The notes beneath the pieces are model-generated. The model did not search any database and was not told the DNA's origin. It was given only the letters and a program-made list of their open reading frames with translations. From Giardia intestinalis (lineage: Eukaryota): DNA of 64,000 nt. Numbering within the stretch: the stretch's first letter is position 1; each line of letters opens with the position of its first letter. The position numbers were made by a program, and so were the translations under genes. Where the stretch lies: NCBI GenBank assembly GCA_000002435.2, contig CM018792.1; one strand, given 5' to 3'. Below are positions 9,333 through 62,019 of this stretch, piece by piece.

Positions 9333-10880
9333 TTACTCACTATGAGGGACGGCTGAAGCAGTGGGTGGATGGAGGCTTGCGCTTGTGGATAAAGCGCTAC
9401 CAGTCACTTCCCGGTGCTTCTTCAGAGGAATATATTTGGCAGCATCCTCAATCTCGTCCTTCGTAAGAAACGTGAGATTCTGTGGTTTCTCGGGGACATC
9501 ACAGCGATCACACTCCGTGAGGTGCTCAACAAAGTTCACGTCTTCGTCAACTGGATTCATCTTCGAGATCATGCGCTCAAGCTCCTGGTTCACGCGCTTG
9601 GCTTCTAAGTCGTCATCATACCCTTGTCTCAGAGTGTTGCGTAGGTTACTTCTATTGAGCTCATCCTCCCTTCGCTGAGCCTCATCAAGCTCCTTTAATC
9701 GGGCAGCATTGGCACGCTCGCGCTCTATCTCCTCTCTACGCTGCCGCTCGGCTTGTTCCTTCTGGTTTTTGATTTCGTCCGCCAAGTCTTTCGCCATCTG
9801 CCTATTGTGCTTTCGTGTCTCCTCTGCCAGTCGTGCATTTTCAGCGGCTATTTGATCGTGTAGCTTCCTTGCTATTTCCTTTTCACGCTCGCGCTCCTCT
9901 GTCTCCTTGGCCAATTGCTCGTCTTTAAGACGTTTTTGTTCTGCAGCAAAGTCATTTAGTTCAGCGAGTTTTCTAAGTCTCTCAGCTTCAGTTTCTTCCT
10001 GCCTTCCTACGGGCCCAATATAATCGTTTATCGCTGCCTTCTCCTCCTCGCGTCGCCTATCAGCCTCCTCCTTGCGCCTACGGATGTCAGCCTCGTGGTC
10101 ACGTTTCTGTTGGTCGGCAAAAGCACGCTGGCGTTCCAGTTCTCGCTGAGCATACTCCTGTGCCTCTCGACGTGCAGCCTCTTGTTGTTCCTTTTCGCGT
10201 TCTAACTCGCGCTGCATAGCCTCCCGTGCAGCTTGACGTGCCTTCTCACTCGCTCTAATTGCGGCCTGGGCATCATCTTGCACCCGCTTTCTCTGCAAAC
10301 GTTCAAGAGCAGCCTCGATATCAGCCAACTTTTTAGCATCATCTGCCTGTTGCTTGGCCGTCTTCTTTTCTTTGTCGCGTTCCATCTCTTCCAATAGCTT
10401 CCTCTTCGCCATATTTAGCTCATTGATGCATGTTGGACACCATGCATCCTCGCAGCGATCAACAACAATTCCAGATTTCATTGGATCATTGTGCCTGCAG
10501 TGAAGCGCCTTCTGCTCATTATAGTCTTTCATAGCAGCAAGAAGGTCCTTCTTTTCATCCAAGCTCATTGCTGCTAGTTGTGCAGTGGTGACGTAGGGTG
10601 CTGCTTTGGGCTGAATCCGAGAGCTGCCAGCAGAACCAGTGCTTGATCGAAGACAGCCTTCTTGTGGAGTCCTCTTTGCAGACGAGTTACCCACTGGAGT
10701 CATGGAGCCAGAGGGCGCCAAATCGTCCAACTTCAGATCACGCGGCTTAGCAGCTGGACTCACCACAGGTGGCTTCTCGCGGGGAGCCACAACCTTAAGC
10801 TCAGTGGAGCGGCTGATGGGATGGATGGGCTCGCTGGGAATGCTAACACCCAGGCTTCCCAGAATATCAAAGTCTGTCAT
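9333..10880 (-). CDS. charged (E/R/K/A-rich) coiled-coil protein, hypothetical
   Basis: ATG preceded by 'ataaaaaa'. There is a long ERK-rich helical region and a short Cys/His cluster (HCRH...CEDAWCPTC). Confidence 0.6.
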   Translation of the reverse strand: MTDFDILGSLGVSIPSEPIHPISRSTELKVVAPREKPPVVSPAAKPRDLKLDDLAPSGSMTPVGNSSAKRTPQEGCLRSSTGSAGSSRIQPKAAPYVTTAQLAAMSLDEKKDLLAAMKDYNEQKALHCRHNDPMKSGIVVDRCEDAWCPTCINELNMAKRKLLEEMERDKEKKTAKQQADDAKKLADIEAALERLQRKRVQDDAQAAIRASEKARQAAREAMQRELEREKEQQEAARREAQEYAQRELERQRAFADQQKRDHEADIRRRKEEADRRREEEKAAINDYIGPVGRQEETEAERLRKLAELNDFAAEQKRLKDEQLAKETEEREREKEIARKLHDQIAAENARLAEETRKHNRQMAKDLADEIKNQKEQAERQRREEIERERANAARLKELDEAQRREDELNRSNLRNTLRQGYDDDLEAKRVNQELERMISKMNPVDEDVNFVEHLTECDRCDVPEKPQNLTFLTKDEIEDAAKYIPLKKHREVTGSALSTSASLHPPTASAVPHSE

Positions 10881-15255: not shown

Positions 15256-15543
15256 CCACTTATAGCTGGTAAATATGAAAACCAAATATGCTCTGAACAC
15301 GAAGACTTAAAATGTAACTCATATTTACCAATCACAGTATAGCCATCTTACTCATTACAAGTTCTCCAATATCTTAATTGTTATTGTGTGCTATTAAGGT
15401 AAGCAGCTGCTTCACTCATCGTTCGAGAGTATGCCATTTACCAACCAAAGGACTGCTTCTTTATGCCCGCAAAAGTGCACACTGGAGCCACAAGCGGCGG
15501 GAACAGTAACTATGGCTGATGCCCCCATGTGATAACTTTAAAA

Positions 15544-17673
15544 ATGCAGCTACCTAAGGTTTATCGGAAGTGCAAAACATGTCTAGTAGGAAATAGTCTG
15601 CTCCATTGCGTCGCCGAATCACTCACTGTACAAGGTCTGACTCCTGAAAAACTAATCTCACTAGCCAAGCGGCTAGTAAGCAAGTGCTCTGGGGTGGGTC
15701 ACGCTTTGATTTCATACTATAGCGTGACTATAAAAGGTGTTAGCACAATAGAGTTTATATCTCCATATGTAGGATGGTCCATAGAAGACTATCTCATGCT
15801 TACACTATATGAGGGAAGGACCATTCCAGAGGAACAAGTATATAGATTTATGGCCGCCATCATTTGGATACTTAACCAGCTCGTGCACATATGCAGAACC
15901 TCACTTCTTATGTGGATCTTTCTTGGATACGCCAATCTATCACTAAATAATTTCTGCCTAGATGAGTTTGGAGCAATACGTTTCCGCTTAGATCTAGGTC
16001 ACACGCTAAAGAACATGATACTGGTCGATGAACGACTTGCGGACTGGCCACGGATCAAAGGGAGTGAGTTAGGTGTTCATCTTAAACTGCATATAATACA
16101 GTGCATCTTACGTCTAGCGTTTCCCCTTAACAATTTAGAAATAAATGGAATTGATCCGTACTCGGGCGCATTTTCTCGAGTATTTAAAGACTCGGAACGA
16201 AGCAAGGTGTTTTGCAGTCGCATGGAGCGTTTAATTTATTTATTTCAAAAAGAAGACATAACGTTAAGTCATATATTACATACAAACTTATTCAAAACAG
16301 AATTAGAAAAGTACTGGCAATCCTTGGGCATAACAGCAGATGACGATGCATCAACGCCTCTCATCGACTCTGTGCGTGCAAACGATATACAAAAAATATA
16401 CAATTTTTATGGACGGCAGGCTGGAATGATGACTTCTTCTGGTAAAACTGCACTTATGATAGCAGCTTCCAGAGGAGACACACGCGTGACCACACTCTTA
16501 GCGACACGGGAAGCTAACTACAGAGACATTTATGGAAACTATGCAACTCTGCTGGCAATCAAGAATGGATACAAAAATGTGGCGTTGCACCTTGCAGCGT
16601 ATGAGTCCATGGTTCTTCAAGAGGATGGTATCACCCCGTTAATGCTTCACGTTATCGGCAAAAATCTACAAGTCCCATTTCAAGAACTGATACAGGATGC
16701 GGGGAAGCAAATGAAAAATGGATTTTCTGCTCTTATGATTGCTTCCTTGACTAATGATCTGGACTATTCAATGGTACTCGCAAAGAAAGAGGCAGGATTG
16801 TGTAACGCAGAAGGGAAGACAGCAGGAACACTAGCTAACGAGCAAGGAAATACACAAATTTCACAATTCTTGGCTCGTTATGAAATAGTAATGGGAGTTG
16901 ATGGAGAAACACAGCTTCATCAAGCAGTATTAGCGGGTGATCTGCGCGCAGTGGAAGCTTATGTACATGCTGCACGTTCATATAATAAGGCTGGCTATAC
17001 AGCGTTAGGATTAGCAGCAAAGTTCAATCATACTGATATCATAAAAACTCTGATTCCCCACGAAGCTGGGATGCGGTGTAAAGTTAGCTTCGAGGCATGC
17101 GGCAGGACGTTTCAGGATCCAACGGCTTTGGCCATAGCAGTCTATCATAATAACGAGCAGGCAGTGAATCTTTTAAAACGGTATGAGGCAGGATTGGGAA
17201 TGAAGCCCCTCCAAACTACTGCCATGATGCTTGCAGCAGCGTGCGGATATAGCGGACTTATATCTCTTCTGCGAACTCGAGAAGAAAAGATGCAAGACAC
17301 ACACGGCAACACCGCGCTGATGTACGCCGTGAATAGCTCTTCCCTAGACGCAGTTTATAAACTAATGAAATACGAATCTCGAATACAAAATACAGAAGGA
17401 TACACTGCACTTATGTATGCTGCCTTCCACAATAAGGTACAAATTGTTGCTGCTCTTATGAAACTGGAAGAGGGGATGATCAATGTGCAAGGCGAACCGG
17501 CTATTATCTGTGCTATCAAGGCAGAAGCTAAAGAGTGTATAAGTATACTTGTTCGAGGATCAGAGGTGTCGTATTCTAAACAGTGTATTGAAATGATTAA
17601 ATCCAGTGCTACACTGACTTGCGCTATGAAGAGAGTTATGTTGAGGTATTTTAAAGAGGAGAAATTTCATTGA
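15544..17673 (+). CDS. ankyrin-repeat protein with degenerate kinase-like N-terminus ('protein 21.1'/dead-NEK style)
   Basis: The track start is GTG. The ATG at 15544 follows 'aactttaaaa'. There are many TALM.AA..G ankyrin repeats. The N-terminal ~170 aa has kinase-like spacing but lacks the catalytic motifs. Confidence 0.7.
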   Translation: MQLPKVYRKCKTCLVGNSLLHCVAESLTVQGLTPEKLISLAKRLVSKCSGVGHALISYYSVTIKGVSTIEFISPYVGWSIEDYLMLTLYEGRTIPEEQVYRFMAAIIWILNQLVHICRTSLLMWIFLGYANLSLNNFCLDEFGAIRFRLDLGHTLKNMILVDERLADWPRIKGSELGVHLKLHIIQCILRLAFPLNNLEINGIDPYSGAFSRVFKDSERSKVFCSRMERLIYLFQKEDITLSHILHTNLFKTELEKYWQSLGITADDDASTPLIDSVRANDIQKIYNFYGRQAGMMTSSGKTALMIAASRGDTRVTTLLATREANYRDIYGNYATLLAIKNGYKNVALHLAAYESMVLQEDGITPLMLHVIGKNLQVPFQELIQDAGKQMKNGFSALMIASLTNDLDYSMVLAKKEAGLCNAEGKTAGTLANEQGNTQISQFLARYEIVMGVDGETQLHQAVLAGDLRAVEAYVHAARSYNKAGYTALGLAAKFNHTDIIKTLIPHEAGMRCKVSFEACGRTFQDPTALAIAVYHNNEQAVNLLKRYEAGLGMKPLQTTAMMLAAACGYSGLISLLRTREEKMQDTHGNTALMYAVNSSSLDAVYKLMKYESRIQNTEGYTALMYAAFHNKVQIVAALMKLEEGMINVQGEPAIICAIKAEAKECISILVRGSEVSYSKQCIEMIKSSATLTCAMKRVMLRYFKEEKFH

Positions 17674-18611
17674 ATACCAAACCTTTGTGATAGTTTTCTT
17701 GCCCGTTCCATGTCCATGCTTAGTACAGTTGATAGTCCTTTCCAAATGACAGGGTCGAACTCATGTTGGTAAGCAGAATCTACTTGATCATCTGATTGCT
17801 GCGTATCCGAAAAACAAATTGTTGACCTAACATATAAAGACTCATATTCGTGCTTATTAAGGTCTATTTGTAGACCATGAATTGCGTAAAGTCGTTGCTG
17901 TTCTATCTTATCTGTGTATCTTCTTATCGTAATTAATCCTTCTGCATACAATTGCGCTATATCAAAGATAGCATGCACCGTTCGAGTAAAGTCTGTTGGG
18001 CTGAGAAATACGAAGGCCAGGGGGTAGAAGCCGCGGCGCGAGAGCTCCGTGACCCGCGCGAGGAGCCCCTGCTTCCGGCGCTCCTGGAGCTCGGCGCCGC
18101 ACATCGCGAGGGCCTCGTAGCGCCGCCGCTCGACGGCCTGCGCGCCGGAGGGCTCTGCCTCCCGGGGCCGCGGGGGAGCCCTGGGGGCTGCGGGCCCTGC
18201 GGTGCCGGCGGCGCACCCCGCGTACAGCGAGGCCGCGAGCTCGGGCGGGAAGCGGGCGGCGTACCCGGCCTGGAACGCGTCGGCGAGGAGGCGCAGGTCG
18301 ACGCGCGGCGGGTCTGCAGGGGCCCCGGCCCGGGGGAGGAGCCGCAGCTGGCCGCGGAGGAAGCCGGCGCCCTGGTCCTCGGCCGCCCGGGCCACCCGCG
18401 CCTCCAGGCTCCGGGCAGACAGGCGCACCGTGGCGGACAGCGCGGCCTCCGTCTGCAGCATCAGGCCGACGTCCCCCCGGGGCTGGGCGGCGTAGGACTC
18501 GTAGCCGTCCCGGAGCTCGGCCAGGAGCGCCGTGACCGCCGCGTGGTCCCGGGCCTGCGCGGCCGCCTGCACCCGGGCGGAGACGCTCGCGAGGCGCGCA
18601 CGGGGCTCCAT
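17667..18611 (-). CDS. cassette gene A, full-length form (314 aa): GC-rich N-terminal ~202 codons fused in frame to ~111 host-composition codons
   Basis: The ATG at 18611 lies 11 nt from the A/T island 'gaatttt'. GC3 is near 100% up to 18012, and the same frame then continues without a stop through normal-composition DNA to the TGA at 17667. The upstream part of the 780-aa track ORF is a GC artefact. Confidence 0.65.
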   Translation of the reverse strand: MEPRARLASVSARVQAAAQARDHAAVTALLAELRDGYESYAAQPRGDVGLMLQTEAALSATVRLSARSLEARVARAAEDQGAGFLRGQLRLLPRAGAPADPPRVDLRLLADAFQAGYAARFPPELAASLYAGCAAGTAGPAAPRAPPRPREAEPSGAQAVERRRYEALAMCGAELQERRKQGLLARVTELSRRGFYPLAFVFLSPTDFTRTVHAIFDIAQLYAEGLITIRRYTDKIEQQRLYAIHGLQIDLNKHEYESLYVRSTICFSDTQQSDDQVDSAYQHEFDPVIWKGLSTVLSMDMERARKLSQRFGIQ

Positions 18612-18653
18612 CGGACGGGGCGGAATTTTGCCGGCCGGCCAAAAATTCACTCG
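18612..18653. promoter_or_regulatory. 42-bp divergent A/B promoter with near-palindromic A/T islands
   Basis: GAATTTTGCCGGCCGGCCAAAAATTC (18623-18648) sits between the two divergent ATGs. It is one of only about five A/T-rich spots in the whole block. Confidence 0.55.
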
Positions 18654-19793
18654 ATGGACTGCATCGGCCGCGGCGTCCTCCTCCCCCCGGGCGGGGCGTG
18701 CTCGTGCGGGGCGCTTCTGGCGGAGCTGCAGCGGGTCTGCCCCCTCCTCGCCGCCTCCCCGGGGGTCTGCGCCGCGCCCCGGGCCCTTGCGTGCTGCCAC
18801 CAGCCCCCGTGCCTCGAGATCGCGCCGGCGCCGGCCACCCCGCGCAGCGCCGTCCGGGTCCCTGGGTCCGCGTGCACGGCTCCACCGCCCGCCGCAGGGC
18901 CCCCGGAGGCCGCCCCGGCCGAGAGCGTCCAGGTGACCCTCAGCGCCCAGCGCGAGTCGTTCGTGATGCAGACGATGCGGCAGGCGCACTACGGCGGCGG
19001 AGAGGCCCCCGCGAGGGCGGAGAGCGCCCGCCTGCCCGCCCCGCAGGCCTCGGACCCGAGGGAGGCCCGGCGGAGCCACGCGTCCCGCCCGCGGACGGCC
19101 GGCCCCCGCCTCCCCGCCTGCCCCGAGGAGCCCCCCGGCAGGGTCCAGTTCCGGGGCGCCCCCGAGGCCCCGCCCCTGCGCTGCGAGCCGGCCCCGCCCT
19201 CCGAGTTCAGCGACTTCGGGTGCGAGCTGCTCGCGGCGGGCCAGCCCGAGGACCGGCGGGTCTGCGGCGCCCCGTGGGTGGACGCGCAGGACCTGCTGAG
19301 CGACGGCTCCGAGCACAGCGAGTTCTACCGCCTCGTCGAGAGGGAGCTCGCGCGGCTTCCGGAGCCCGCGGCCCCGGCCCTCCCGGAGAGCGAGCCCTCG
19401 CTGGACGCGCTGCCCGTGCACGCCTCGCCCCGGGGCCCGCAGATCATCGAGCCCACGCCGGCCGCCCTGCAGGAGCCAGAGGAGCCCGCGCCCCCGCAGC
19501 CCCCCACGCCGGGCCGCTCCGACAGCGTCTCGGCAGACATCACGGAGTCGCTCCTCGTGGAGGGCCGGCCCCTGCCCGACCGCCCCCCGGGCCCGGAGCC
19601 GTCCGAGGGCAGCGCCGGGTACAGCGGAGAGGCCTTCGACAGCTCCGGCTCGCCCCGGGGCCTGACCGACGAGGCCGCGGGGTCTGCGGGCCTGGACGAG
19701 GAGGACCTGCTGGGGTCCGTCGGCGGGGACCTGCGGGCGCTGCTCATGGACAGCGGGTCCGGGTCGCTGTCTGCGGGGGCCTGGCCGGAGTGA
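18654..19793 (+). CDS. cassette gene B: acidic, Pro/Ala-rich, probably disordered protein (379 aa)
   Basis: ATG preceded by 'ccaaaaattcactcg'. GC3 is near 100% in this frame. The TGA stop is embedded in AGTGAAC (19789-19795). The N-terminal ~100 codons are uncertain, because the substitution cluster there is mostly nonsynonymous. Confidence 0.55.
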   Translation: MDCIGRGVLLPPGGACSCGALLAELQRVCPLLAASPGVCAAPRALACCHQPPCLEIAPAPATPRSAVRVPGSACTAPPPAAGPPEAAPAESVQVTLSAQRESFVMQTMRQAHYGGGEAPARAESARLPAPQASDPREARRSHASRPRTAGPRLPACPEEPPGRVQFRGAPEAPPLRCEPAPPSEFSDFGCELLAAGQPEDRRVCGAPWVDAQDLLSDGSEHSEFYRLVERELARLPEPAAPALPESEPSLDALPVHASPRGPQIIEPTPAALQEPEEPAPPQPPTPGRSDSVSADITESLLVEGRPLPDRPPGPEPSEGSAGYSGEAFDSSGSPRGLTDEAAGSAGLDEEDLLGSVGGDLRALLMDSGSGSLSAGAWPE

Positions 19794-19795
19794 AC
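19789..19795 (+). terminator. AGTGAAC poly(A)-signal-like motif overlapping the gene B stop
   Basis: It matches the Giardia-type AGTRAAY consensus and is an isolated A/T-containing motif in GC-rich DNA. Confidence 0.5.
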
Positions 19796-19816
19796 TCGGG
19801 AGAGCCTTTTTATTGA

Positions 19817-22327
19817 ATGGATTCTGCGCCACTCGCCGTCGCGATCCGGGAGCACGTCCCGGGCCCGAGGCCCCCGCCGCGGCCGTCCGGGGGGCGGTCC
19901 CTCTTCGCGCAGGCCGTGGCCGCCGGGGCCGGACAGACCGGGAGGCCCTTCGCCCTCGGGCAGCCCCCGCCGCGCGCCCCGGCCCCAGCGCCGCCCCGGG
20001 GCCCCCCACCGCCCCCCGCCGCAGAGGACCCGGGCGGGCCCCTCCTCGGGTACGGGGGCGCCGCAGACCCGGAGGCCGTCCCGTTCTGCAGCGCGGCGGA
20101 CATCGGGCTCCTCTGCCGGTCGACGAACCCCGCCCAGCGCGAGTACGGGCTCCGGATGCTCGCGAACGCCGTCGCGCTCCGGCGCGTCCGGGACGGCGGC
20201 GCCCCCGACCCCGTCCTCGAGGCCCTGCTCTGCCTCCCCGCCGACCCGCACGCGTGCCCCTCGTCTGCCGGCCACCTCCTCCTCCTGGGCCTGCGGGACG
20301 CCCTGGAGTCCGGGAGCCCCGGCCTCCTCGACGCCGCCCTCTCCGGCCTCGCCACGGTCTTCGTCGCCGACGAGGGCTTCCTCAGCGAGACCGTCCACGT
20401 CGGGGCCGCGCTGCTCGGGCTGACGTCCAGCTCGGTCGCCTTCCCCCTCGGCTCCCTGCTGCGGCGGCTCGTCGAGCACGGGCTCCCGGGGCTCCTGGGC
20501 CAGGCCCTCGACGCCGCCGCGCGCGCAGACGAGCGGCGCCGGGAGCGGCTCGCCCACAGCGCGTACCTGCTGGCCGAGCGCGTGCTCATCGGCTGCTGCC
20601 CCGCAGACGAGCCCCCGGAGACCGCCGCCGGCCTGCGGGCCCTCGCGGAGCGGCTCCTCGCGGCGCTCCTGGGCGAGCTCGCCGGGCTGGCGGAGACGGG
20701 GGCCTTCCTGACGACCGCCTCCCGCGTCGCCCTCCGGACGCTCTGCTACGACCACGTCCTCGACGGCCACGCGCTCGGCCGGGACGCCGTCGCCCTCCTC
20801 GTCGAGTCCCTCGAGGCGTTCGTCGGGGCGCTCCCCGGCCAGGACGAGGCGGTCCGCACAGAGCTCCTCTCGGCCGCCACGCTCCACTACCTCCTCGTCG
20901 CCCGGGTCCTGCGGGGGAGCCCCGAGCTCTGCGCCCTGCACGCGGCCGTCTCTGCGACGTGCGCCGCCGCCCTGGAGCGCCACGCCCCGGCCGCCCCCGC
21001 GGAGCTCAGCGCGCTCCTCGTCCTGCTCCGGATCCTCCGGGCCCGGGCCGCCGTCCCCCGCGCGCGCCTGGGGCTCTCGGAGGCATGCTTCCGGCGGCTG
21101 GTCGACTGGCGGGCCCCGCCCGAGGCCGGGGGCTTCGCGCTGCCCCAGGGGCCCTCCGCGGCGTTCGCCCCGTTCTACGCCCTCGCGGCCGTCCAGTGGC
21201 GCGGCCCGGGCGAGTGGGGCGCGGCGGAGGCCTGGGTCGGCTGCGTGATGGACGTCCTCGCCAGCGGGCCCCCGGTCGCGCGCTGGGCGCCCCCGGCCGT
21301 CGACGCCCACCGGCGGGCAGGCGTGCTCCCGTGCGCGGTGACCGACGCAGGGGTCGCCCTCGCGCTCCTCGTCGCGGCCCTGGCGGCCGTCTGGGGCCCC
21401 GGGCTCCCGTTTGCCGCCGGCCTCGCCGAGCGGGTCGGGGAGCGCCTGGCAGGGCTCCCGGCCGAGTTCCGGTTCGTCGTCGCGTTCCCGCTCGCCCGGC
21501 TCCTCCCCCCGCTGCCCGCTATCGAGTGCGGGCTCTACCCGAACGCGGCGCTCCTCGGGGCGCTCCGGGCCGTCACGGGCCACCCGGGCTACGACCCCGC
21601 GGCAGAGGCGCTTGCGCACGTCGACGCCCGCTGCCCGTGCCCCGCGCTCGCGGCCCTCCACGCGGCGTGCGTGCTCGCCTCGGACGGGATGCGGCGCGAC
21701 GGGGCGTGGCGGCTCGCGGTCCTCCGGCTCGCGCTGCAGCGCCTGGCCGGGCTGGAGACCGCAGGGGCCGCCCGGGGCCGCGTCCTCGCGTACGGGCTCC
21801 TCTGCGTCCTCGACACGCTGACGGGCGTCTGTCGCCTCCCCCCGGACGCCGCGGCCCTCCTCGCGGAGACGCTCGCCGGGGTCCTCCGCCTCGCCCGCGC
21901 AGGCCCCGCCCCCGCCGCCGAGCTCCTCTACGCAGCGCCCGCCGGGGGGCTCCGGACGCTCGACGCCGCCGCCGGCGCGTTTGTCGAGGGCCTCCACGGG
22001 GGCGCGGCGGTGCTCCCCGAGGCCCCGCTCGTCTACCTCGCGCTCCTCCACCCGCAGCTCGTCCCGGACCCCCGCCGCCGGGCAGAGCTCTGGTCCGGGC
22101 TCGCGCTCCTGCGGCTCGACTTCGCGGCGCTCGACGGGGGCCTCCTCGCGGGGCTCTGCGAAGACGACCCCGCGCCCGTCCTCGCGTGCCTCGCGTGCTA
22201 CGAGCGCCGCGCAGAGACCGCCCTGTCGCGCCGCGTCCTCGCCCGGTACGCAGAGGCCCACCGGGGGCAGAGGCCCGACCGGGTCGTCGTCGCGGCCGTC
22301 GAGGAGGCCCTCCGACCAGCGGGCTAG
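19817..22327 (+). CDS. cassette gene C: 836-aa Ala/Leu-rich alpha-helical-repeat (ARM/HEAT-like) protein
   Basis: ATG preceded by 'cctttttattga'. GC3 is near 100%. Six of the 7 between-copy substitutions are third-position synonymous changes in this frame. The overlapping 925-aa (+) and 978-aa (-) ORFs are Arg/Pro/Gly low-complexity artefacts. Confidence 0.8.
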   Translation: MDSAPLAVAIREHVPGPRPPPRPSGGRSLFAQAVAAGAGQTGRPFALGQPPPRAPAPAPPRGPPPPPAAEDPGGPLLGYGGAADPEAVPFCSAADIGLLCRSTNPAQREYGLRMLANAVALRRVRDGGAPDPVLEALLCLPADPHACPSSAGHLLLLGLRDALESGSPGLLDAALSGLATVFVADEGFLSETVHVGAALLGLTSSSVAFPLGSLLRRLVEHGLPGLLGQALDAAARADERRRERLAHSAYLLAERVLIGCCPADEPPETAAGLRALAERLLAALLGELAGLAETGAFLTTASRVALRTLCYDHVLDGHALGRDAVALLVESLEAFVGALPGQDEAVRTELLSAATLHYLLVARVLRGSPELCALHAAVSATCAAALERHAPAAPAELSALLVLLRILRARAAVPRARLGLSEACFRRLVDWRAPPEAGGFALPQGPSAAFAPFYALAAVQWRGPGEWGAAEAWVGCVMDVLASGPPVARWAPPAVDAHRRAGVLPCAVTDAGVALALLVAALAAVWGPGLPFAAGLAERVGERLAGLPAEFRFVVAFPLARLLPPLPAIECGLYPNAALLGALRAVTGHPGYDPAAEALAHVDARCPCPALAALHAACVLASDGMRRDGAWRLAVLRLALQRLAGLETAGAARGRVLAYGLLCVLDTLTGVCRLPPDAAALLAETLAGVLRLARAGPAPAAELLYAAPAGGLRTLDAAAGAFVEGLHGGAAVLPEAPLVYLALLHPQLVPDPRRRAELWSGLALLRLDFAALDGGLLAGLCEDDPAPVLACLACYERRAETALSRRVLARYAEAHRGQRPDRVVVAAVEEALRPAG

Positions 22328-22328
22328 C

Positions 22329-22335
22329 GTTCACT
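22329..22335 (-). terminator. AGTGAAC poly(A)-signal-like motif overlapping the kinase stop
   Basis: The minus strand reads TGAGTGAAC. Only 7 bp separate the convergent stops of C and D. Confidence 0.5.
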
Positions 22336-23264
22336 CAATCAGGGGCACCTGACCCCAGGGCGGCCCGCAGGCCCGCGACCTCCCCCCGGAGCCGGGCGAC
22401 CTCGTCCTCCAGGGCCTTGAAGCGCAGGGCCGTCGCGACCGCAGGCGCCCCGCCCTCTGCGTCGAGGAGCTCCACGAGGGCCGCGGCGGTGAGGCGGCGC
22501 TCCGGCTCCAGGACGAGGAGGTGGGCGAGGACGCCCCGGACGACGGGGTCCCCGACCGCGCCCAGGTCCGGCCGCCAGCCCGCGACGTAGACCTCCGCGG
22601 GGGCCCGCCCGGAGAGGAACGGGGGCCTGCCGCCCGCCGCGAGCTCGTAGGCGACCATCCCGAGGCTCCACATGTCCGCGGCCGGCGTGTGGCTCCCGCC
22701 CCGCAGGACCTCCGGCGCGGCGTAGACGGGGACGGCCATGGAGGCGAGCCCCCCGGGGCCCTCCCTGCAGAGCCCGAAGTCGGAGATGGCGAACTCCGCC
22801 CCGGCCTCGTCGAGGAGGACGTTCGCGGGCCGCAGGTCGCAGTGCGTGAGGGCGGGGAGCGGGGCGCCCGCGGCGTCGGTCTTCCCGGGCCGGTGGAGGT
22901 AGGCGAGCCCCGCGCCCACCTGGCGGAGGACGGCGACGACCATCTCGCGCGGGGCGAGCTGCCTTCTGCGGCGGAGGCTCCGGATGGCCCCGTCGAGGGA
23001 GCCTGCGTAGCGCCGCATCTCGACGTAGATGTAGCCCTCGTGCCGGACGACGCGCCCGTACTCGACGACGTTCGGGTGGCGGAGGCGCGGGAGGGTCCGG
23101 AGCTCGAGCTCGAGCGAGGCCTGCGCGTCGGGGGGCAGCCCGTCGGTCGGGATCTCCTTGACCGCCCTGTCGGGGGCGCTCTTCAGGCCGTAGACGGTCC
23201 CGTGGGCCCCGCTCCCGAGCTCTGCGCCCAGGTCTTCGAGGAGGGCGTCGATGGCCTCGGACAT
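22335..23264 (-). CDS. cassette gene D: NEK-like Ser/Thr protein kinase with short coiled-coil tail (309 aa)
   Basis: ATG preceded by 'attaaaaag'. Motifs are LGSGAHGTVY, AVKEI, HPNVVEY, HCDLRPANVLL, SDFGL, AAPEV and DMWSLG. The TGA stop overlaps AGTGAAC. Confidence 0.9.
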   Translation of the reverse strand: MSEAIDALLEDLGAELGSGAHGTVYGLKSAPDRAVKEIPTDGLPPDAQASLELELRTLPRLRHPNVVEYGRVVRHEGYIYVEMRRYAGSLDGAIRSLRRRRQLAPREMVVAVLRQVGAGLAYLHRPGKTDAAGAPLPALTHCDLRPANVLLDEAGAEFAISDFGLCREGPGGLASMAVPVYAAPEVLRGGSHTPAADMWSLGMVAYELAAGGRPPFLSGRAPAEVYVAGWRPDLGAVGDPVVRGVLAHLLVLEPERRLTAAALVELLDAEGGAPAVATALRFKALEDEVARLRGEVAGLRAALGSGAPD

Positions 23265-23268
23265 CTTT

Positions 23269-23595
23269 TTAATCCGCGACTGGGCGATTGGGTGGGCTCA
23301 ATCGCTTGGGCTCAGATCGGGGCCTGTATAGATTCACCGAACAGATATGACAATTAGCGCACTTACTACCTAAGTTACGTCTTCCTGCAGCAGAAAAATC
23401 CAATGAGACCACCGCGCTCTTAGTAATATTAGAATTTGCGCATTTTGTCTTATCGTTATTAGAGTCAAAGATTTTTATCCTGGCACAATTATTGGATCTG
23501 TCCTTGTAGTTAGTAGTGGAAAATCCCACTCCACATGATGTTTGTGCCCATATAAACTGGATAATTAAGGCAACAAACACAAATCTGCCAAGCAT
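23269..23595 (-). CDS. small ORF with signal-peptide-like N-terminus, reading into the right end of copy 1 (doubtful)
   Basis: ATG at 23595 and a hydrophobic N-terminus, MLGRFVFVALIIQFIWA. The first 93 codons are host-composition DNA, and the last 15 codons plus the stop lie inside the repeat. Confidence 0.25.
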   Translation of the reverse strand: MLGRFVFVALIIQFIWAQTSCGVGFSTTNYKDRSNNCARIKIFDSNNDKTKCANSNITKSAVVSLDFSAAGRRNLGSKCANCHICSVNLYRPRSEPKRLSPPNRPVAD

Positions 23596-56287: not shown

Positions 56288-56911
56288 CTAAAGAGTAAGC
56301 TTAAGAAATACGAAGGCCAGGGGGTAGAAGCCGCGGCGCGAGAGCTCCGTGACCCGCGCGAGGAGCCCCTGCTTCCGGCGCTCCTGGAGCTCGGCGCCGC
56401 ACATCGCGAGGGCCTCGTAGCGCCGCCGCTCGACGGCCTGCGCGCCGGAGGGCTCTGCCTCCCGGGGCCGCGGGGGAGCCCTGGGGGCTGCGGGCCCTGC
56501 GGTGCCGGCGGCGCACCCCGCGTACAGCGAGGCCGCGAGCTCGGGCGGGAAGCGGGCGGCGTACCCGGCCTGGAACGCGTCGGCGAGGAGGCGCAGGTCG
56601 ACGCGCGGCGGGTCTGCAGGGGCCCCGGCCCGGGGGAGGAGCCGCAGCTGGCCGCGGAGGAAGCCGGCGCCCTGGTCCTCGGCCGCCCGGGCCACCCGCG
56701 CCTCCAGGCTCCGGGCAGACAGGCGCACCGTGGCGGACAGCGCGGCCTCCGTCTGCAGCATCAGGCCGACGTCCCCCCGGGGCTGGGCGGCGTAGGACTC
56801 GTAGCCGTCCCGGAGCTCGGCCAGGAGCGCCGTGACCGCCGCGTGGTCCCGGGCCTGCGCGGCCGCCTGCACCCGGGCGGAGACGCTCGCGAGGCGCGCA
56901 CGGGGCTCCAT
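56288..56911 (-). CDS. cassette gene A, C-terminally truncated form (207 aa)
   Basis: Codons 1-202 are identical to copy 1. At the repeat edge the frame runs into the local flank and ends ...FVFLKLTL then TAG. Confidence 0.5.
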   Translation of the reverse strand: MEPRARLASVSARVQAAAQARDHAAVTALLAELRDGYESYAAQPRGDVGLMLQTEAALSATVRLSARSLEARVARAAEDQGAGFLRGQLRLLPRAGAPADPPRVDLRLLADAFQAGYAARFPPELAASLYAGCAAGTAGPAAPRAPPRPREAEPSGAQAVERRRYEALAMCGAELQERRKQGLLARVTELSRRGFYPLAFVFLKLTL

Positions 56912-56953
56912 CGGACGGGGCGGAATTTTGCCGGCCGGCCAAAAATTCACTCG

Positions 56954-58093
56954 ATGGACTGCATCGGCCGCGGCGTCCTCCTCCCCCCGGGCGGGGCGTG
57001 CTCGTGCGGGGCGCTTCTGGCGGAGCTGCAGCGGGTCTGCCCCCTCCTCGCCGCCTCCCCGGAGGTCTGCGCCGCGCCCCGGGCCCTTGTCTGCTGCCGC
57101 CAGCCCCCGTGCCTCGAGATCGCGCCGGCGCCGGCCACCCCGAGCAGCGCCGTCCGGGTCCCTGGGTCCGCGTGCACGGCTCCACCGCCCGCCGCAGGGC
57201 CCCCGGAGGCCGCCCCGGCCGAGAGCGTCCAGGTGACCCTCAGCGCCCAGCGCGAGTCGTTCGTGATGCAGACGATGCGGCAGGCGCACTACGGCGGCGG
57301 AGAGGCCCCCGCGAGGGCGGAGAGCGCCCGCCTGCCCGCCCCGCAGGCCTCGGACCCGAGGGAGGCCCGGCGGAGCCACGCGTCCCGCCCGCGGACGGCC
57401 GGCCCCCGCCTCCCCGCCTGCCCCGAGGAGCCCCCCGGCAGGGTCCAGTTCCGGGGCGCCCCCGAGGCCCCGCCCCTGCGCTGCGAGCCGGCCCCGCCCT
57501 CCGAGTTCAGCGACTTCGGGTGCGAGCTGCTCGCGGCGGGCCAGCCCGAGGACCGGCGGGTCTGCGGCGCCCCGTGGGTGGACGCGCAGGACCTGCTGAG
57601 CGACGGCTCCGAGCACAGCGAGTTCTACCGCCTCGTCGAGAGGGAGCTTGCGCGGCTTCCGGAGCCCGCGGCCCCGGCCCTCCCGGAGAGCGAGCCCTCG
57701 CTGGACGCGCTGCCCGTGCACGCCTCGCCCCGGGGCCCGCAGATCATCGAGCCCACGCCGGCCGCCCTGCAGGAGCCAGAGGAGCCCGCGCCCCCGCAGC
57801 CCCCCACGCCGGGCCGCTCCGACAGCGTCTCGGCAGACATCACGGAGTCGCTCCTCGTGGAGGGCCGGCCCCTGCCCGACCGCCCCCCGGGCCCGGAGCC
57901 GTCCGAGGGCAGCCCCGGGTACAGCGGAGAGGCCTTCGACAGCTCCGGCTCGCCCCGGGGCCTGACCGACGAGGCCGCGGGGTCTGCGGGCCTGGACGAG
58001 GAGGACCTGCTGGGGTCCGTCGGCGGGGACCTGCGGGCGCTGCTCATGGACAGCGGGTCCGGGTCGCTGTCTGCGGGGGCCTGGCCGGAGTGA
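56954..58093 (+). CDS. cassette gene B, copy 2
   Basis: It has the same signals as copy 1 and differs by 5 amino-acid changes and 1 synonymous change. Confidence 0.55.
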   Translation: MDCIGRGVLLPPGGACSCGALLAELQRVCPLLAASPEVCAAPRALVCCRQPPCLEIAPAPATPSSAVRVPGSACTAPPPAAGPPEAAPAESVQVTLSAQRESFVMQTMRQAHYGGGEAPARAESARLPAPQASDPREARRSHASRPRTAGPRLPACPEEPPGRVQFRGAPEAPPLRCEPAPPSEFSDFGCELLAAGQPEDRRVCGAPWVDAQDLLSDGSEHSEFYRLVERELARLPEPAAPALPESEPSLDALPVHASPRGPQIIEPTPAALQEPEEPAPPQPPTPGRSDSVSADITESLLVEGRPLPDRPPGPEPSEGSPGYSGEAFDSSGSPRGLTDEAAGSAGLDEEDLLGSVGGDLRALLMDSGSGSLSAGAWPE

Positions 58094-58116
58094 ACTCGGG
58101 AGAGCCTTTTTATTGA

Positions 58117-60627
58117 ATGGATTCTGCGCCACTCGCCGTCGCGATCCGGGAGCACGTCCCGGGCCCGAGGCCCCCGCCGCGGCCGTCCGGGGGGCGGTCC
58201 CTCTTCGCGCAGGCCGTGGCCGCCGGGGCCGGGCAGACCGGAAGGCCCTTCGCCCTCGGGCAGCCCCCGCCGCGCGCCCCGGCCCCAGCGCCGCCCCGGG
58301 GCCCCCCACCGCCCCCCGCCGCAGAGGACCCGGGCGGGCCCCTCCTCGGGTACGGGGGCGCCGCAGACCCGGAGGCCGTCCCGTTCTGCAGCGCGGCGGA
58401 CATCGGGCTCCTCTGCCGGTCGACGAACCCCGCTCAGCGCGAGTACGGGCTCCGGATGCTCGCGAACGCCGTCGCGCTCCGGCGCGTCCGGGACGGCGGC
58501 GCCCCCGATCCCGTCCTCGAGGCCCTGCTCTGCCTCCCCGCCGACCCGCACGCGTGCCCCTCGTCTGCCGGCCACCTCCTCCTCCTGGGCCTGCGAGACG
58601 CCCTGGAGTCCGGGAGCCCCGGCCTCCTCGACGCCGCCCTCTCCGGCCTCGCCACGGTCTTCGTCGCCGACGAGGGCTTCCTCAGCGAGACCGTCCACGT
58701 CGGGGCCGCGCTGCTCGGGCTGACGTCCAGCTCGGTCGCCTTCCCCCTCGGCTCCCTGCTGCGGCGGCTCGTCGAGCACGGGCTCCCGGGGCTCCTGGGC
58801 CAGGCCCTCGACGCCGCCGCGCGCGCAGACGAGCGGCGCCGGGAGCGGCTCGCCCACAGCGCGTACCTGCTGGCCGAGCGCGTGCTCATCGGCTGCTGCC
58901 CCGCAGACGAGCCCCCGGAGACCGCCGCCGGCCTGCGGGCCCTCGCGGAGCGGCTCCTCGCGGCGCTCCTGGGCGAGCTCGCCGGGCTGGCGGAGACGGG
59001 GGCCTTCCTGACGACCGCCTCCCGCGTCGCCCTCCGGACGCTCTGCTACGACCACGTCCTCGACGGCCACGCGCTCGGCCGGGACGCCGTCGCCCTCCTC
59101 GTCGAGTCCCTCGAGGCGTTCGTCGGGGCGCTCCCCGGCCAGGACGAGGCGGTCCGCACAGAGCTCCTCTCGGCCGCCACGCTCCACTACCTCCTCGTCG
59201 CCCGGGTCCTGCGGGGGAGCCCCGAGCTCTGCGCCCTGCACGCGGCCGTCTCTGCGACGTGCGCCGCCGCCCTGGAGCGCCACGCCCCGGCCGCCCCCGC
59301 GGAGCTCAGCGCGCTCCTCGTCCTGCTCCGGATCCTCCGGGCCCGGGCCGCCGTCCCCCGCGCGCGCCTGGGGCTCTCGGAGGCATGCTTCCGGCGGCTG
59401 GTCGACTGGCGGGCCCCGCCCGAGGCCGGGGGCTTCGCGCTGCCTCGGGGGCCCTCCGCGGCGTTCGCCCCGTTCTACGCCCTCGCGGCCGTCCAGTGGC
59501 GCGGCCCGGGCGAGTGGGGCGCGGCGGAGGCCTGGGTCGGCTGCGTGATGGACGTCCTCGCCAGCGGGCCCCCGGTCGCGCGCTGGGCGCCCCCGGCCGT
59601 CGACGCCCACCGGCGGGCAGGCGTGCTCCCGTGCGCGGTGACCGACGCAGGGGTCGCCCTCGCGCTCCTCGTCGCGGCCCTGGCGGCCGTCTGGGGCCCC
59701 GGGCTCCCGTTTGCCGCCGGCCTCGCCGAGCGGGTCGGGGAGCGCCTGGCAGGGCTCCCGGCCGAGTTCCGGTTCGTCGTCGCGTTCCCGCTCGCCCGGC
59801 TCCTCCCCCCGCTGCCCGCTATCGAGTGCGGGCTCTACCCGAACGCGGCGCTCCTCGGGGCGCTCCGGGCCGTCACGGGCCACCCGGGCTACGACCCCGC
59901 GGCAGAGGCGCTTGCGCACGTCGACGCCCGCTGCCCGTGCCCCGCGCTCGCGGCCCTCCACGCGGCGTGCGTGCTCGCCTCGGACGGGATGCGGCGCGAC
60001 GGGGCGTGGCGGCTCGCGGTCCTCCGGCTCGCGCTGCAGCGCCTGGCCGGGCTGGAGACCGCAGGGGCCGCCCGGGGCCGCGTCCTCGCGTACGGGCTCC
60101 TCTGCGTCCTCGACACGCTGACGGGCGTCTGTCGCCTCCCCCCGGACGCCGCGGCCCTCCTCGCGGAGACGCTCGCCGGGGTCCTCCGCCTCGCCCGCGC
60201 AGGCCCCGCCCCCGCCGCCGAGCTCCTCTACGCAGCGCCCGCCGGGGGGCTCCGGACGCTCGACGCCGCCGCCGGCGCGTTTGTCGAGGGCCTCCACGGG
60301 GGCGCGGCGGTGCTCCCCGAGGCCCCGCTCGTCTACCTCGCGCTCCTCCACCCGCAGCTCGTCCCGGACCCCCGCCGCCGGGCAGAGCTCTGGTCCGGGC
60401 TCGCGCTCCTGCGGCTCGACTTCGCGGCGCTCGACGGGGGCCTCCTCGCGGGGCTCTGCGAAGACGACCCCGCGCCCGTCCTCGCGTGCCTCGCGTGCTA
60501 CGAGCGCCGCGCAGAGACCGCCCTGTCGCGCCGCGTCCTCGCCCGGTACGCAGAGGCCCACCGGGGGCAGAGGCCCGACCGGGTCGTCGTCGCGGCCGTC
60601 GAGGAGGCCCTCCGACCAGCGGGCTAG
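58117..60627 (+). CDS. cassette gene C, copy 2 (836 aa)
   Basis: The ORF is intact, with one replacement (Q->R) and 6 synonymous differences relative to copy 1. Confidence 0.8.
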   Translation: MDSAPLAVAIREHVPGPRPPPRPSGGRSLFAQAVAAGAGQTGRPFALGQPPPRAPAPAPPRGPPPPPAAEDPGGPLLGYGGAADPEAVPFCSAADIGLLCRSTNPAQREYGLRMLANAVALRRVRDGGAPDPVLEALLCLPADPHACPSSAGHLLLLGLRDALESGSPGLLDAALSGLATVFVADEGFLSETVHVGAALLGLTSSSVAFPLGSLLRRLVEHGLPGLLGQALDAAARADERRRERLAHSAYLLAERVLIGCCPADEPPETAAGLRALAERLLAALLGELAGLAETGAFLTTASRVALRTLCYDHVLDGHALGRDAVALLVESLEAFVGALPGQDEAVRTELLSAATLHYLLVARVLRGSPELCALHAAVSATCAAALERHAPAAPAELSALLVLLRILRARAAVPRARLGLSEACFRRLVDWRAPPEAGGFALPRGPSAAFAPFYALAAVQWRGPGEWGAAEAWVGCVMDVLASGPPVARWAPPAVDAHRRAGVLPCAVTDAGVALALLVAALAAVWGPGLPFAAGLAERVGERLAGLPAEFRFVVAFPLARLLPPLPAIECGLYPNAALLGALRAVTGHPGYDPAAEALAHVDARCPCPALAALHAACVLASDGMRRDGAWRLAVLRLALQRLAGLETAGAARGRVLAYGLLCVLDTLTGVCRLPPDAAALLAETLAGVLRLARAGPAPAAELLYAAPAGGLRTLDAAAGAFVEGLHGGAAVLPEAPLVYLALLHPQLVPDPRRRAELWSGLALLRLDFAALDGGLLAGLCEDDPAPVLACLACYERRAETALSRRVLARYAEAHRGQRPDRVVVAAVEEALRPAG

Positions 60628-60634
60628 CGTTCAC

Positions 60635-61564
60635 TCAATCAGGGGCACCTGACCCCAGGGCGGCCCGCAGGCCCGCGACCTCCCCCCGGAGCCGGGCGAC
60701 CTCGTCCTCCAGGGCCTTGAAGCGCAGGGCCGTCGCGACCGCAGGCGCCCCGCCCTCTGCGTCGAGGAGCTCCACGAGGGCCGCGGCGGTGAGGCGGCGC
60801 TCCGGCTCCAGGACGAGGAGGTGGGCGAGGACGCCCCGGACGACGGGGTCCCCGACCGCGCCCAGGTCCGGCCGCCAGCCCGCGACGTAGACCTCCGCGG
60901 GGGCCCGCCCGGAGAGGAACGGGGGCCTGCCGCCCGCCGCGAGCTCGTAGGCGACCATCCCGAGGCTCCACATGTCCGCGGCCGGCGTGTGGCTCCCGCC
61001 CCGCAGGACCTCCGGCGCGGCGTAGACGGGGACGGCCATGGAGGCGAGCCCCCCGGGGCCCTCCCTGCAGAGCCCGAAGTCGGAGATGGCGAACTCCGCC
61101 CCGGCCTCGTCGAGGAGGACGTTCGCGGGCCGCAGGTCGCAGTGCGTGAGGGCGGGGAGCGGGGCGCCCGCGGCGTCGGTCTTCCCGGGCCGGTGGAGGT
61201 AGGCGAGCCCCGCGCCCACCTGGCGGAGGACGGCGACGACCATCTCGCGCAGGGCGAGCTGCCTTCTGCGGCGGAGGCTCCGGATGGCCCCGTCGAGGGA
61301 GCCTGCGTAGCGCCGCATCTCGACGTAGATGTAGCCCTCGTGCCGGACGACGCGCCCGTACTCGACGACGTTCGGGTGGCGGAGGCGCGGGAGGGTCCGG
61401 AGCTCGAGCTCGAGCGAGGCCTGCGCGTCGGGGGGCAGCCCGTCGGTCGGGATCTCCTTGACCGCCCTGTCGGGGGCGCTCTTCAGGCCGTAGACGGTCC
61501 CGTGGGCCCCGCTCCCGAGCTCTGCGCCCAGGTCTTCGAGGAGGGCGTCGATGGCCTCGGACAT
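60635..61564 (-). CDS. cassette gene D, NEK-like kinase, copy 2
   Basis: The ATG at 61564 follows 'attaaaaag'. There is one replacement (P->L). The 15-codon upstream extension in the track ORF (start 61609) is created by the 8-bp insertion and lacks an initiator. Confidence 0.9.
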   Translation of the reverse strand: MSEAIDALLEDLGAELGSGAHGTVYGLKSAPDRAVKEIPTDGLPPDAQASLELELRTLPRLRHPNVVEYGRVVRHEGYIYVEMRRYAGSLDGAIRSLRRRRQLALREMVVAVLRQVGAGLAYLHRPGKTDAAGAPLPALTHCDLRPANVLLDEAGAEFAISDFGLCREGPGGLASMAVPVYAAPEVLRGGSHTPAADMWSLGMVAYELAAGGRPPFLSGRAPAEVYVAGWRPDLGAVGDPVVRGVLAHLLVLEPERRLTAAALVELLDAEGGAPAVATALRFKALEDEVARLRGEVAGLRAALGSGAPD

Positions 61565-62019
61565 CTTTTTAATCCGCGACTGGGCGATTGGGTGATTGGG
61601 CGGGCTCAATCGCTTGGGCTCAGACTGAGATACCGCCTAGCTGAGCGCCGCTCAATGAGGGTGATCGGGCGGAATTGAACGAAAAGGAAAGGACCCGACC
61701 ATCGTTCCAGAGATGGCTTGACCGAGTTCGCCTGTCGACTAGGATCAGATCAGGCAGCTAGTACTGGACTACTCACTATCAATATGTATTCTATCACTGG
61801 AGTTATGGAACAGCTAAGTGAAGTCTATATTCTTAAGATGAATCTTAATTGTCAATAATTGATGTTTACAAATCTGGAGTCTCTGCATCTTAGGTCAATC
61901 CTAAATAGGTAAATATGAGCATGTCCAGATAAAGTTTACTGTCAACCCACATAGTAAGATAAGTTAAAGCAGATTACGACCTCCGAGGTTGAAAGAGGGA
62001 ATGCTTGTTGATGACCTCA

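Follow-up and report, generated by a model that had tools for sequence, protein, structure and literature searches.

Mammalian paralogues that convert one another, such as those of the histone and Hsp70 families, have a higher guanine-plus-cytosine (GC) content at third codon positions (GC3) than relatives that do not convert. In Mus musculus, the Fxy (Mid1) gene spans the pseudoautosomal boundary, and its 3′ part alone has undergone a burst of weak-to-strong (W-to-S, A/T to G/C) change (PMC2631073). For Giardia, GC-biased gene conversion (gBGC) has been proposed for the exceptionally GC-rich ribosomal RNA genes, in a report that cites Escobar et al. 2011 (PMC10123126), and a 2025 study finds genes in AI–AII conversion events to be modestly GC-enriched, with a median of 0.54 (PMC12669663). 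The subject here is a protein-coding block of Giardia intestinalis, a 5.3-kb segmental duplication within a stretch of 64,000 nucleotides (NCBI GenBank assembly GCA_000002435.2, contig CM018792.1; the whole stretch is called the window, and positions count from its first letter). One edge of the duplication falls inside a gene, termed gene A, and separates a GC-rich duplicated head from an AT-rich unique tail. The probable explanation of this pattern is GC-biased gene conversion between paralogous copies, acting on the duplicated two-thirds of an ancestral gene.

Gene A is one open frame on the minus strand, running from an ATG at 18611 to a stop at 17667–17669. A first-pass annotation, made from the letters alone, had reported GC3 of nearly 100% for about 200 codons and an abrupt switch in mid-frame at the repeat boundary, and both statements hold. 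The head comprises 203 codons with GC of 0.84, 0.60 and 0.96 at codon positions 1, 2 and 3, and the tail comprises 111 codons with 0.50, 0.36 and 0.29. The repeat edge lies between 18003 and 18004 and splits the codon of Leu203, with CT inside the repeat and C (copy 1) or T (copy 2) outside it. The very GC-rich DNA stops about 11 nt short of this edge, and the last bases shared by the copies, ttcgtatttct, are AT-rich. Beyond the split codon, the 111 sense codons counted earlier do stay open, in DNA of about 38% GC (put at about 40% before). That an open tail of this length is unlikely by chance is borne out, and the earlier figure of about 0.1% gives way to a rarer one, since codon shuffles of the tail stay open in 43 of 200,000 trials (2 × 10−4). 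The stop of gene A was correctly placed 7 nt inside the convergent ankyrin-repeat gene.

Copy 2 of the block carries the same head, with zero differences over its 608 nt, and the shared sequence ends at the same point. The frame there closes as FVFL-KLTL-stop, that is, with four unrelated sense codons and a stop in the flank, rather than the five codons first counted. The truncated product is without the conserved C-terminal domain, and it is probably a by-product whose frame conversion keeps open. Counterparts of it are present in protein records (P0003 and the partial DHA2_152232), and no exact match to the complete 314-aa product was found in the protein collection.

The tail had been proposed to be coding, now or until recently, and its conservation agrees: it is retained across assemblages, in G. 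muris and in Dysnectes, with low ratios of nonsynonymous to synonymous divergence (dN/dS of 0.10 for assemblages A versus E and 0.15 for A versus B). Orthologues from DH (A2), P15 (E) and assemblage B have head and tail in one open reading frame (ORF), with the same switch directly after FVFL; the third of these lineages is assigned to assemblage B because its flanking gene clusters with GS proteins. A profile search of 1.8 billion representative proteins recovered GMRT_10367 of G. muris, two more relatives, and a protein of Dysnectes brevis. All of these outgroup proteins align across the junction, with invariant residues on either side of it (M170, G172, Q176, R179, L183, L184, Y196, P197 and F200 in the head, and P205, F216, D217 and others in the tail). 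The G. muris orthologue (contig L009, 10001–11062) has no compositional step, its GC3 being 0.61 in the head and 0.63 in the tail, and it has an orthologous ankyrin neighbour that is likewise convergent and overlapping. In an AlphaFold model of residues 161–314, where the predicted local distance difference test score is 82–91 over model residues 10–105, a confident helix and winged-helix unit bridges the junction at model residue 43/44. Gene A is therefore a single ancient functional gene of the fornicate lineage. The head motifs common to G. muris and Dysnectes are preserved, so copy 1 of gene A is still under selection.

Two histories had been offered at the outset. Either only the duplicated portion of an ancestral gene became GC-rich, or a GC-rich element landed in frame on the 3′ part of a host gene, and orthologues of head and tail had been suggested as the check. 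These form one protein in every lineage found, outgroups included. In the second history, a foreign or mobile element carrying the head would have inserted such that its frame ran by chance into the 3′ part of the host gene. The sharp edge in mid-ORF and the 33-point difference in GC do resemble an insertion, and one third of insertions would be in frame. Orthologues with head and tail in one protein nevertheless refute such a fusion: in G. muris and Dysnectes the orthologous counterpart of the head makes up the N-terminal two-thirds of the protein, motifs and fold cross the junction, and the composition of the G. muris gene is uniform. The block also has none of the features of a transposon, as inverted repeats, a target-site duplication in the flanks, and transposition genes such as those for a transposase or reverse transcriptase are all absent, and a mobile element was rejected as a candidate. 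All four block genes have a short AT-rich sequence directly upstream of the ATG, of the Giardia type, and the stops of genes B and D also carry an AGTGAAC motif. AT-rich initiators are marks of Giardia promoters. An in-frame fusion is thus very improbable, and the data side with the ancestral gene.

High GC and membership in the repeat go together at four independent edges. The background GC outside the block is 46%, the block is at 78%, and the change is sharp at all four block ends (18004, 23316, 56304 and 61624). The kinase gene of the block, gene D, has a third copy elsewhere on the chromosome, beside a GWT1 gene (KAE8303967, 308 aa, with one extra C near the stop; L012 1711–2699, L013 and L014). 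This copy has 74–86% GC (about 78%), falling to about 40% where its homology to the block (22329–23316) ends, at 22329, 6 nt past the stop codon. A GC island could instead have come first, for instance through a local hotspot of recombination or mutation or through selection for GC, with its edge inside gene A, and the duplication could have copied exactly that island; belonging to a repeat would then not be what raised the GC. Islands of higher GC have been described around VSP genes in WB (Franzen et al. 2009, PMC2723961), and breakpoints could favour compositional edges. Such a history needs four breakpoints, and also the breakpoint of the third kinase copy at 22329, to fall at island edges, and it meets further difficulties in the age of the copies and in assemblage E, described below.

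As a separate observation on the third kinase copy, contig L012 (Logan SRR10368394, 1–3900) leads from the right flank of copy 1 (NOG1 and a 157-aa gene) through gene D to GWT1 and skips genes C, B and A. Either recombination between kinase copies or a chimeric path through a 1-kb exact repeat may have produced this join.

The Giardia ribosomal DNA (rDNA) unit is similar to the block in size and in GC (about 75%), and GC-rich DNA yields long spurious ORFs in all six frames. The block might then be an assembly artefact or a misread rDNA unit, and gene A a spurious ORF in stop-poor DNA. Searches for the Giardia rDNA unit (small-subunit, 5.8S and large-subunit genes) with Rfam came back empty both at gathering thresholds and at E ≤ 1, and the block was rejected as such a unit. 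A clear protein kinase domain is present in gene D, Pfam finds no other domain in the block, and genes A–D have orthologues in other assemblages with dN/dS below 1. Both junction types recur in independent assemblies from several isolates (DH, P15, Logan and ENA contigs), and the WB 2020 annotation lists both copies, marking the duplicates with ‘d’ locus tags (PMC7000408). An artefact is therefore hardly credible. An origin from a virus or phage was also rejected, as a megablast search against a phage collection was empty and the flanking Pfam matches (NOG1, INO80-like, kinesin and ankyrin) are eukaryotic.

The DH and P15 draft assemblies, like Logan contigs from several isolates, break off at the edges 18004, 23316 and 56304 or shortly inside them (L001, L002, L005, L007 and L008), and the DH and P15 models of gene A are missing their first 50–60 codons. 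Since assemblies end at the block edges, GC-rich repeats like this block are a systematic cause of gaps and truncated gene models.

The duplication is old. Copy 2 is inserted between GL50803_0016367 and a cathepsin-like gene, and the copy-2 junction, TTCGT(A/G)TTTCT, adjoins the GL50803_0016367 orthologue in assemblages A, B (L007 and L004) and E (L008, decayed). The assemblage B contig L007, which opens in the final 27 nt of the head, crosses the same junction into that orthologue and its neighbours and represents the copy-2 locus of assemblage B. The assemblage E copy-2 locus lies on P15 contig ACVC01000141 (L008), where the junction is recognisable and decayed. For the copy-2 flank in L004 there was no significant BLAST match to the window, and the flanking gene was used to set the synteny. 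Since three assemblages have one and the same junction at this syntenic locus, the duplication is older than the A/B/E split. Copy 1 is the ancestral locus, because gene A is complete there and the ankyrin neighbour is syntenic with G. muris.

Despite this age, the copies within a genome are nearly identical. In assemblage A the identity is 99.57%, with 15 substitutions and one 8-nt indel; in assemblage B it is 98.1% and stops exactly at the junction; and in assemblage E it is 100% over the 144 nt available. Between lineages, A and B are 72–82% identical and A and E are 85–89% identical. An old duplication with near-identical copies is the signature of concerted evolution, and the comparison shows that the copies evolve in concert, by gene conversion. 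The prior existence of a GC island leaves unexplained the 99.6% identity of copies older than the A/B split. The 8-nt indel is the sole length difference between both blocks, and it lies in a short GATTGGGY tandem motif upstream of gene D (23277–23316 and 61585–61624).

The differences that do separate the copies (18763–22951 versus 57063–61251) are polarisable at 13 of 15 sites using assemblages E and B, and 11 of these 13 are derived in copy 2. Six of the 15 are nonsynonymous, four of them in gene B. This fits copy 2 as a less constrained passenger, and suggests either that copy 2 is under weaker constraint or that copy 1 is mostly the donor in conversion and copy 2 the recipient. One Logan contig (L010) has mixed copy-1 and copy-2 variants; near-identical repeats can become mixed when contigs are built, so it is not counted as a conversion tract.

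Assemblage E provides a reversal of the pattern. Identity between the P15 copies is 100% but breaks off 3 nt before the ATG of gene A (L002:1–144 = L008:4–147). In copy 2 of assemblage E, about 180 nt of sequence at 42% GC and a decayed junction remnant stand in place of the head, and global alignment of this filler with the gene A head found no convincing similarity. The P15 copy-1 head, now without a partner, has a GC3 of 0.71 (range 0.62–0.80), and genes B and C of assemblage E are still at 0.95 (on a contig that overlaps the P15 contig at 99% identity). With assemblage B as the outgroup, strong-to-weak (S-to-W) changes at third positions of the head number 46 specific to E versus 2 specific to A, and those in the tail number 2 and 2. 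The comparison thus shows that GC decays where the partner copy was lost. A pre-existing island leaves unexplained why the copy-1 head of E lost GC from the point where the E copies cease to be identical, with genes B and C staying at 0.95; that order of events is improbable. The other history first offered, with GC enrichment confined to the duplicated part of an ancestral gene, is supported: there is one gene in all lineages, G. muris is uniform in composition, the copies evolve in concert, and head GC falls solely in assemblage E, where the duplicate head was lost.

The consequences for the protein are visible in composition and in rates. Glycine, alanine, arginine and proline make up 0.51 of the head and 0.18 of the tail in G. 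duodenalis, and 0.27 and 0.20 in G. muris. Synonymous divergence (dS) between A and E is 0.11–0.21 in genes B and C and 0.54 in the tail; between A and B it is 0.24–0.38 in genes B and C and the gene A head, and 1.06 in the tail. In the block (genes B, C and the head for A versus B, and genes B and C for A versus E) dN/dS is 0.5–0.7, versus 0.10–0.15 in the tail. Block dS is thus two to four times lower than that of the tail and nonsynonymous divergence (dN) is raised, as expected if third positions are pinned to G or C. The gene A head departs from the block in A versus E, with a dS of 0.50 and a dN/dS of 0.18, because in E the head is no longer duplicated.

The probable course of events, pieced together from these comparisons, is as follows. 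Before A, B and E diverged, a 5.3-kb segment was copied to a site 38 kb away; it comprised codons 1–203 of gene A, the NEK kinase gene, and genes B and C, and the kinase gene went to a third site as well. Since then, the copies have repeatedly corrected each other through gene conversion, in which heteroduplex repair, or another recombination-coupled step, would prefer G/C over A/T. The converting tract may thereby have been driven to about 79% GC and a GC3 of about 0.96, with a head protein that is now 51% glycine, alanine, arginine and proline, and the unique tail kept the genomic composition. Biased conversion of the duplicated part alone would explain why the composition switches exactly at the duplication breakpoint. 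The copy-2 ORF would be a passenger, kept open by conversion from the selected copy and by the scarcity of stop codons in GC-rich DNA. We infer biased repair in inter-copy conversion as the cause.

Several points weigh against this explanation. All of its support is comparative, and neither a conversion event nor a repair bias is directly observed. The assemblage B copies that were compared (L003 and L004) come from different samples, and the inference from assemblage E depends on the ends of two draft P15 contigs and on one contig from Logan. The polarised differences between the WB copies comprise about 9 S-to-W, 2 W-to-S and 2 S-to-S changes (n = 13); per site, S-to-W and W-to-S are roughly equal in DNA of 79% GC, so that they give no W-to-S excess by themselves. 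The explanation also gives no clear reason why two or three copies should far exceed the GC of single-copy DNA, which is likewise homogenised, allelically, in this tetraploid. Finally, a mutation bias associated with recombination predicts the same pattern as biased repair. Under such recombination-associated mutagenesis the history would be the same, and GC would be gained through error-prone, GC-biased synthesis during ectopic repair and not through biased mismatch repair. It fits the comparative evidence equally well and also accommodates inter-copy differences with no clear W-to-S excess. The young differences between the copies are, however, mostly AT-ward (C-to-T and G-to-A), which favours a fixation bias, weakly, as there are 15 sites. 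Recombination-associated mutagenesis is on balance unlikely, and biased repair during conversion is preferred.

The identity of gene A is suggested by distant similarity. Gene A, GMRT_10367 and the D. brevis relative are annotated merely as hypothetical proteins. Nse4_C (PF08743) is the best or only Pfam match in all seven family members tested, and none of the seven reaches its gathering score of 26 bits, their scores being 15–23 bits (E from 1e-4 to 2e-2). In a PDB search with a seven-sequence profile, the top four matches are yeast Nse4 (three) and human EID3, collinear and with weak E values of 0.04–0.3; a search of the PDB with a four-sequence profile gave no Nse4 match. One Foldseek run ranked the chain 7tve_G first (E 0.057, not significant), and another placed 7qcd_F, 7tve_G and 8t8f_G at ranks 2, 5 and 6 (E 0.3–0.9, not significant), among ScpA and other winged-helix proteins. 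Gene A is thus a probable Nse4-type kleisin, a DNA-repair subunit, of SMC5/6, and the gene A family members are candidates for the SMC5/6 kleisin of Fornicata. A description of a Giardia Nse4 was not found in the searchable literature.

The features of the two copies are collected in Table 1. The flanking ORFs, which are intronless and tightly packed, encode, by Pfam, NOG1, an INO80-type SNF2 ATPase, a kinesin, and armadillo and many ankyrin proteins. The block holds the gene A head, gene B, gene C and, as gene D, the NEK kinase. Exact protein matches put genes of the block on the 2.76-Mb chromosome in the 2020 assembly of G. intestinalis WB. In that assembly (PMC7000408), duplicates were given ‘d’ locus tags and duplications make up 6.9% of the genome. 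The tags mean that the annotators of 2020 recognised this duplication, and genes B and C are listed there as duplicate pairs. A term search of PMC7000408 returned nothing on GC content, on gene conversion or on gene A as a half-duplicated gene.

Table 1. Positions of the duplicated block, its genes and the adjoining ankyrin gene in the window
Feature	Position	Strand	Size and composition	Locus tag	Remarks
Copy 1 of the 5.3-kb segmental duplication	18004..23316		78.5% GC		
Copy 2 of the 5.3-kb segmental duplication	56304..61624		78.3% GC		direct orientation, 38.3 kb downstream
Gene A, full-length	17667..18611	-	314 aa + stop		head 18004-18611 in repeat; tail 17667-18003 in unique DNA
Gene A, truncated copy	56288..56911	-	207 aa + stop		
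A/B divergent intergenic region	18612..18653		42 nt		duplicate at 56912-56953; AT-rich motifs aaaatt / aaaaatt, read from the sequence
Gene B, copy 1	18654..19793	+	379 aa, low-complexity, GC3 0.96	GL50803_00d23876	
Gene B, copy 2	56954-58093			GL50803_0023876	
Gene C, copy 1	19817..22327	+	836 aa, GC3 0.96	GL50803_00d60704	
Gene C, copy 2	58117-60627			GL50803_0060704	
Gene D, copy 1	22335..23264	-	309 aa, GC3 0.96		NEK-type protein kinase
Gene D, copy 2	60635-61564				
Convergent ankyrin-repeat gene	15529..17673	+			overlaps gene A stop by 7 nt

Three further ORFs of the window deserve mention. On the minus strand at 23269–23595, a 108-aa ORF begins in unique DNA with an N-terminus that is hydrophobic and signal-like, and it extends 47 nt into the right end of copy 1; Pfam gives no match for it, and it may be spurious. 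That this ORF might be the N-terminus of a host gene split by an insertion was rejected, as joining 23317 to 18003 breaks the frame, and the outgroup orthologues of gene A make the idea needless. At 7985–9307, on the plus strand, is a 440-aa ORF whose P15 and DH orthologues have a precomputed Pfam match to Hom_end_hint, of the Hint/intein type. Between 9500 and 10500, within the ORF at 9333–10880, AT skew is −0.33 to −0.41 and GC skew is −0.20 to −0.24.

The value of the locus is that it provides a control within a gene. The duplicated head and the unique tail have one reading frame, one promoter and one expression level, so selection on expression or codon usage cannot explain the jump in GC3 from 0.29 to 0.96, and a process linked to recombination is isolated as the cause. 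Assemblage E is a built-in reversal, in which only the head lost its partner and only the head decayed. The change in the protein is of a non-adaptive kind, as its composition is rewritten and its dN/dS inflated, and scans for positive selection in Giardia should therefore mask such tracts. The conserved ‘hypothetical protein’ of Fornicata also becomes a new lead as a candidate Nse4 kleisin.

Meiosis is not known in Giardia. Frequent biased conversion between non-allelic copies bears on the debate over sex and recombination in this organism and on the origin of its GC-rich rDNA, and the same process bears on why short-read and draft assemblies break at such blocks. It is possible, and is put forward tentatively, that conversion between as few as two or three dispersed paralogues may hold third positions at about 96% G/C and override selection at the protein level, given that glycine, alanine, arginine or proline now fill half of the head of what looks like an essential kleisin. 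If this applied generally, repeat membership would be the main determinant of Giardia base composition, accounting both for the VSP islands of high GC and for the 75% GC of the rDNA. Compositional edges would then map where, and since when, non-allelic recombination acts, and would so open the old question of recombination in a putative asexual to direct study.

A description of this locus, of its gene identifiers, or of GC enrichment in Giardia segmental duplications was not found in the searchable literature, and its closest relatives are the systems named at the beginning. As in Fxy, one gene lies partly in a highly recombining region, that part alone is shifted from W to S with many amino-acid replacements, and the effect stops where the recombining region does. 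The driver in mouse is allelic, meiotic crossover and conversion in the pseudoautosomal region, whereas the partners in Giardia are paralogous copies 38 kb apart; the Giardia shift is also larger (GC3 of 0.29 versus 0.96), is older, being common to A and B, and affects the 5′ part rather than the 3′ part. With the rDNA, the block shares homogenisation by conversion among repeats of one genome and a GC of about 75–80% against a background of 46–49%. The rDNA is, however, a high-copy tandem array near telomeres and non-coding, while the block exists in two to three dispersed copies, is internal to the chromosome and encodes proteins, and it has an edge in mid-gene and a visible effect on protein composition. 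The mammalian histone and Hsp70 paralogues are likewise enriched in GC under concerted evolution, but theirs are statistical trends over families, whereas the block is a single tract with base-pair-sharp edges and an assemblage E control. The phenomenon is of a known kind, gBGC together with concerted evolution; this instance stands out as unusually extreme and unusually clean, and both a control and a reversal are built into it.

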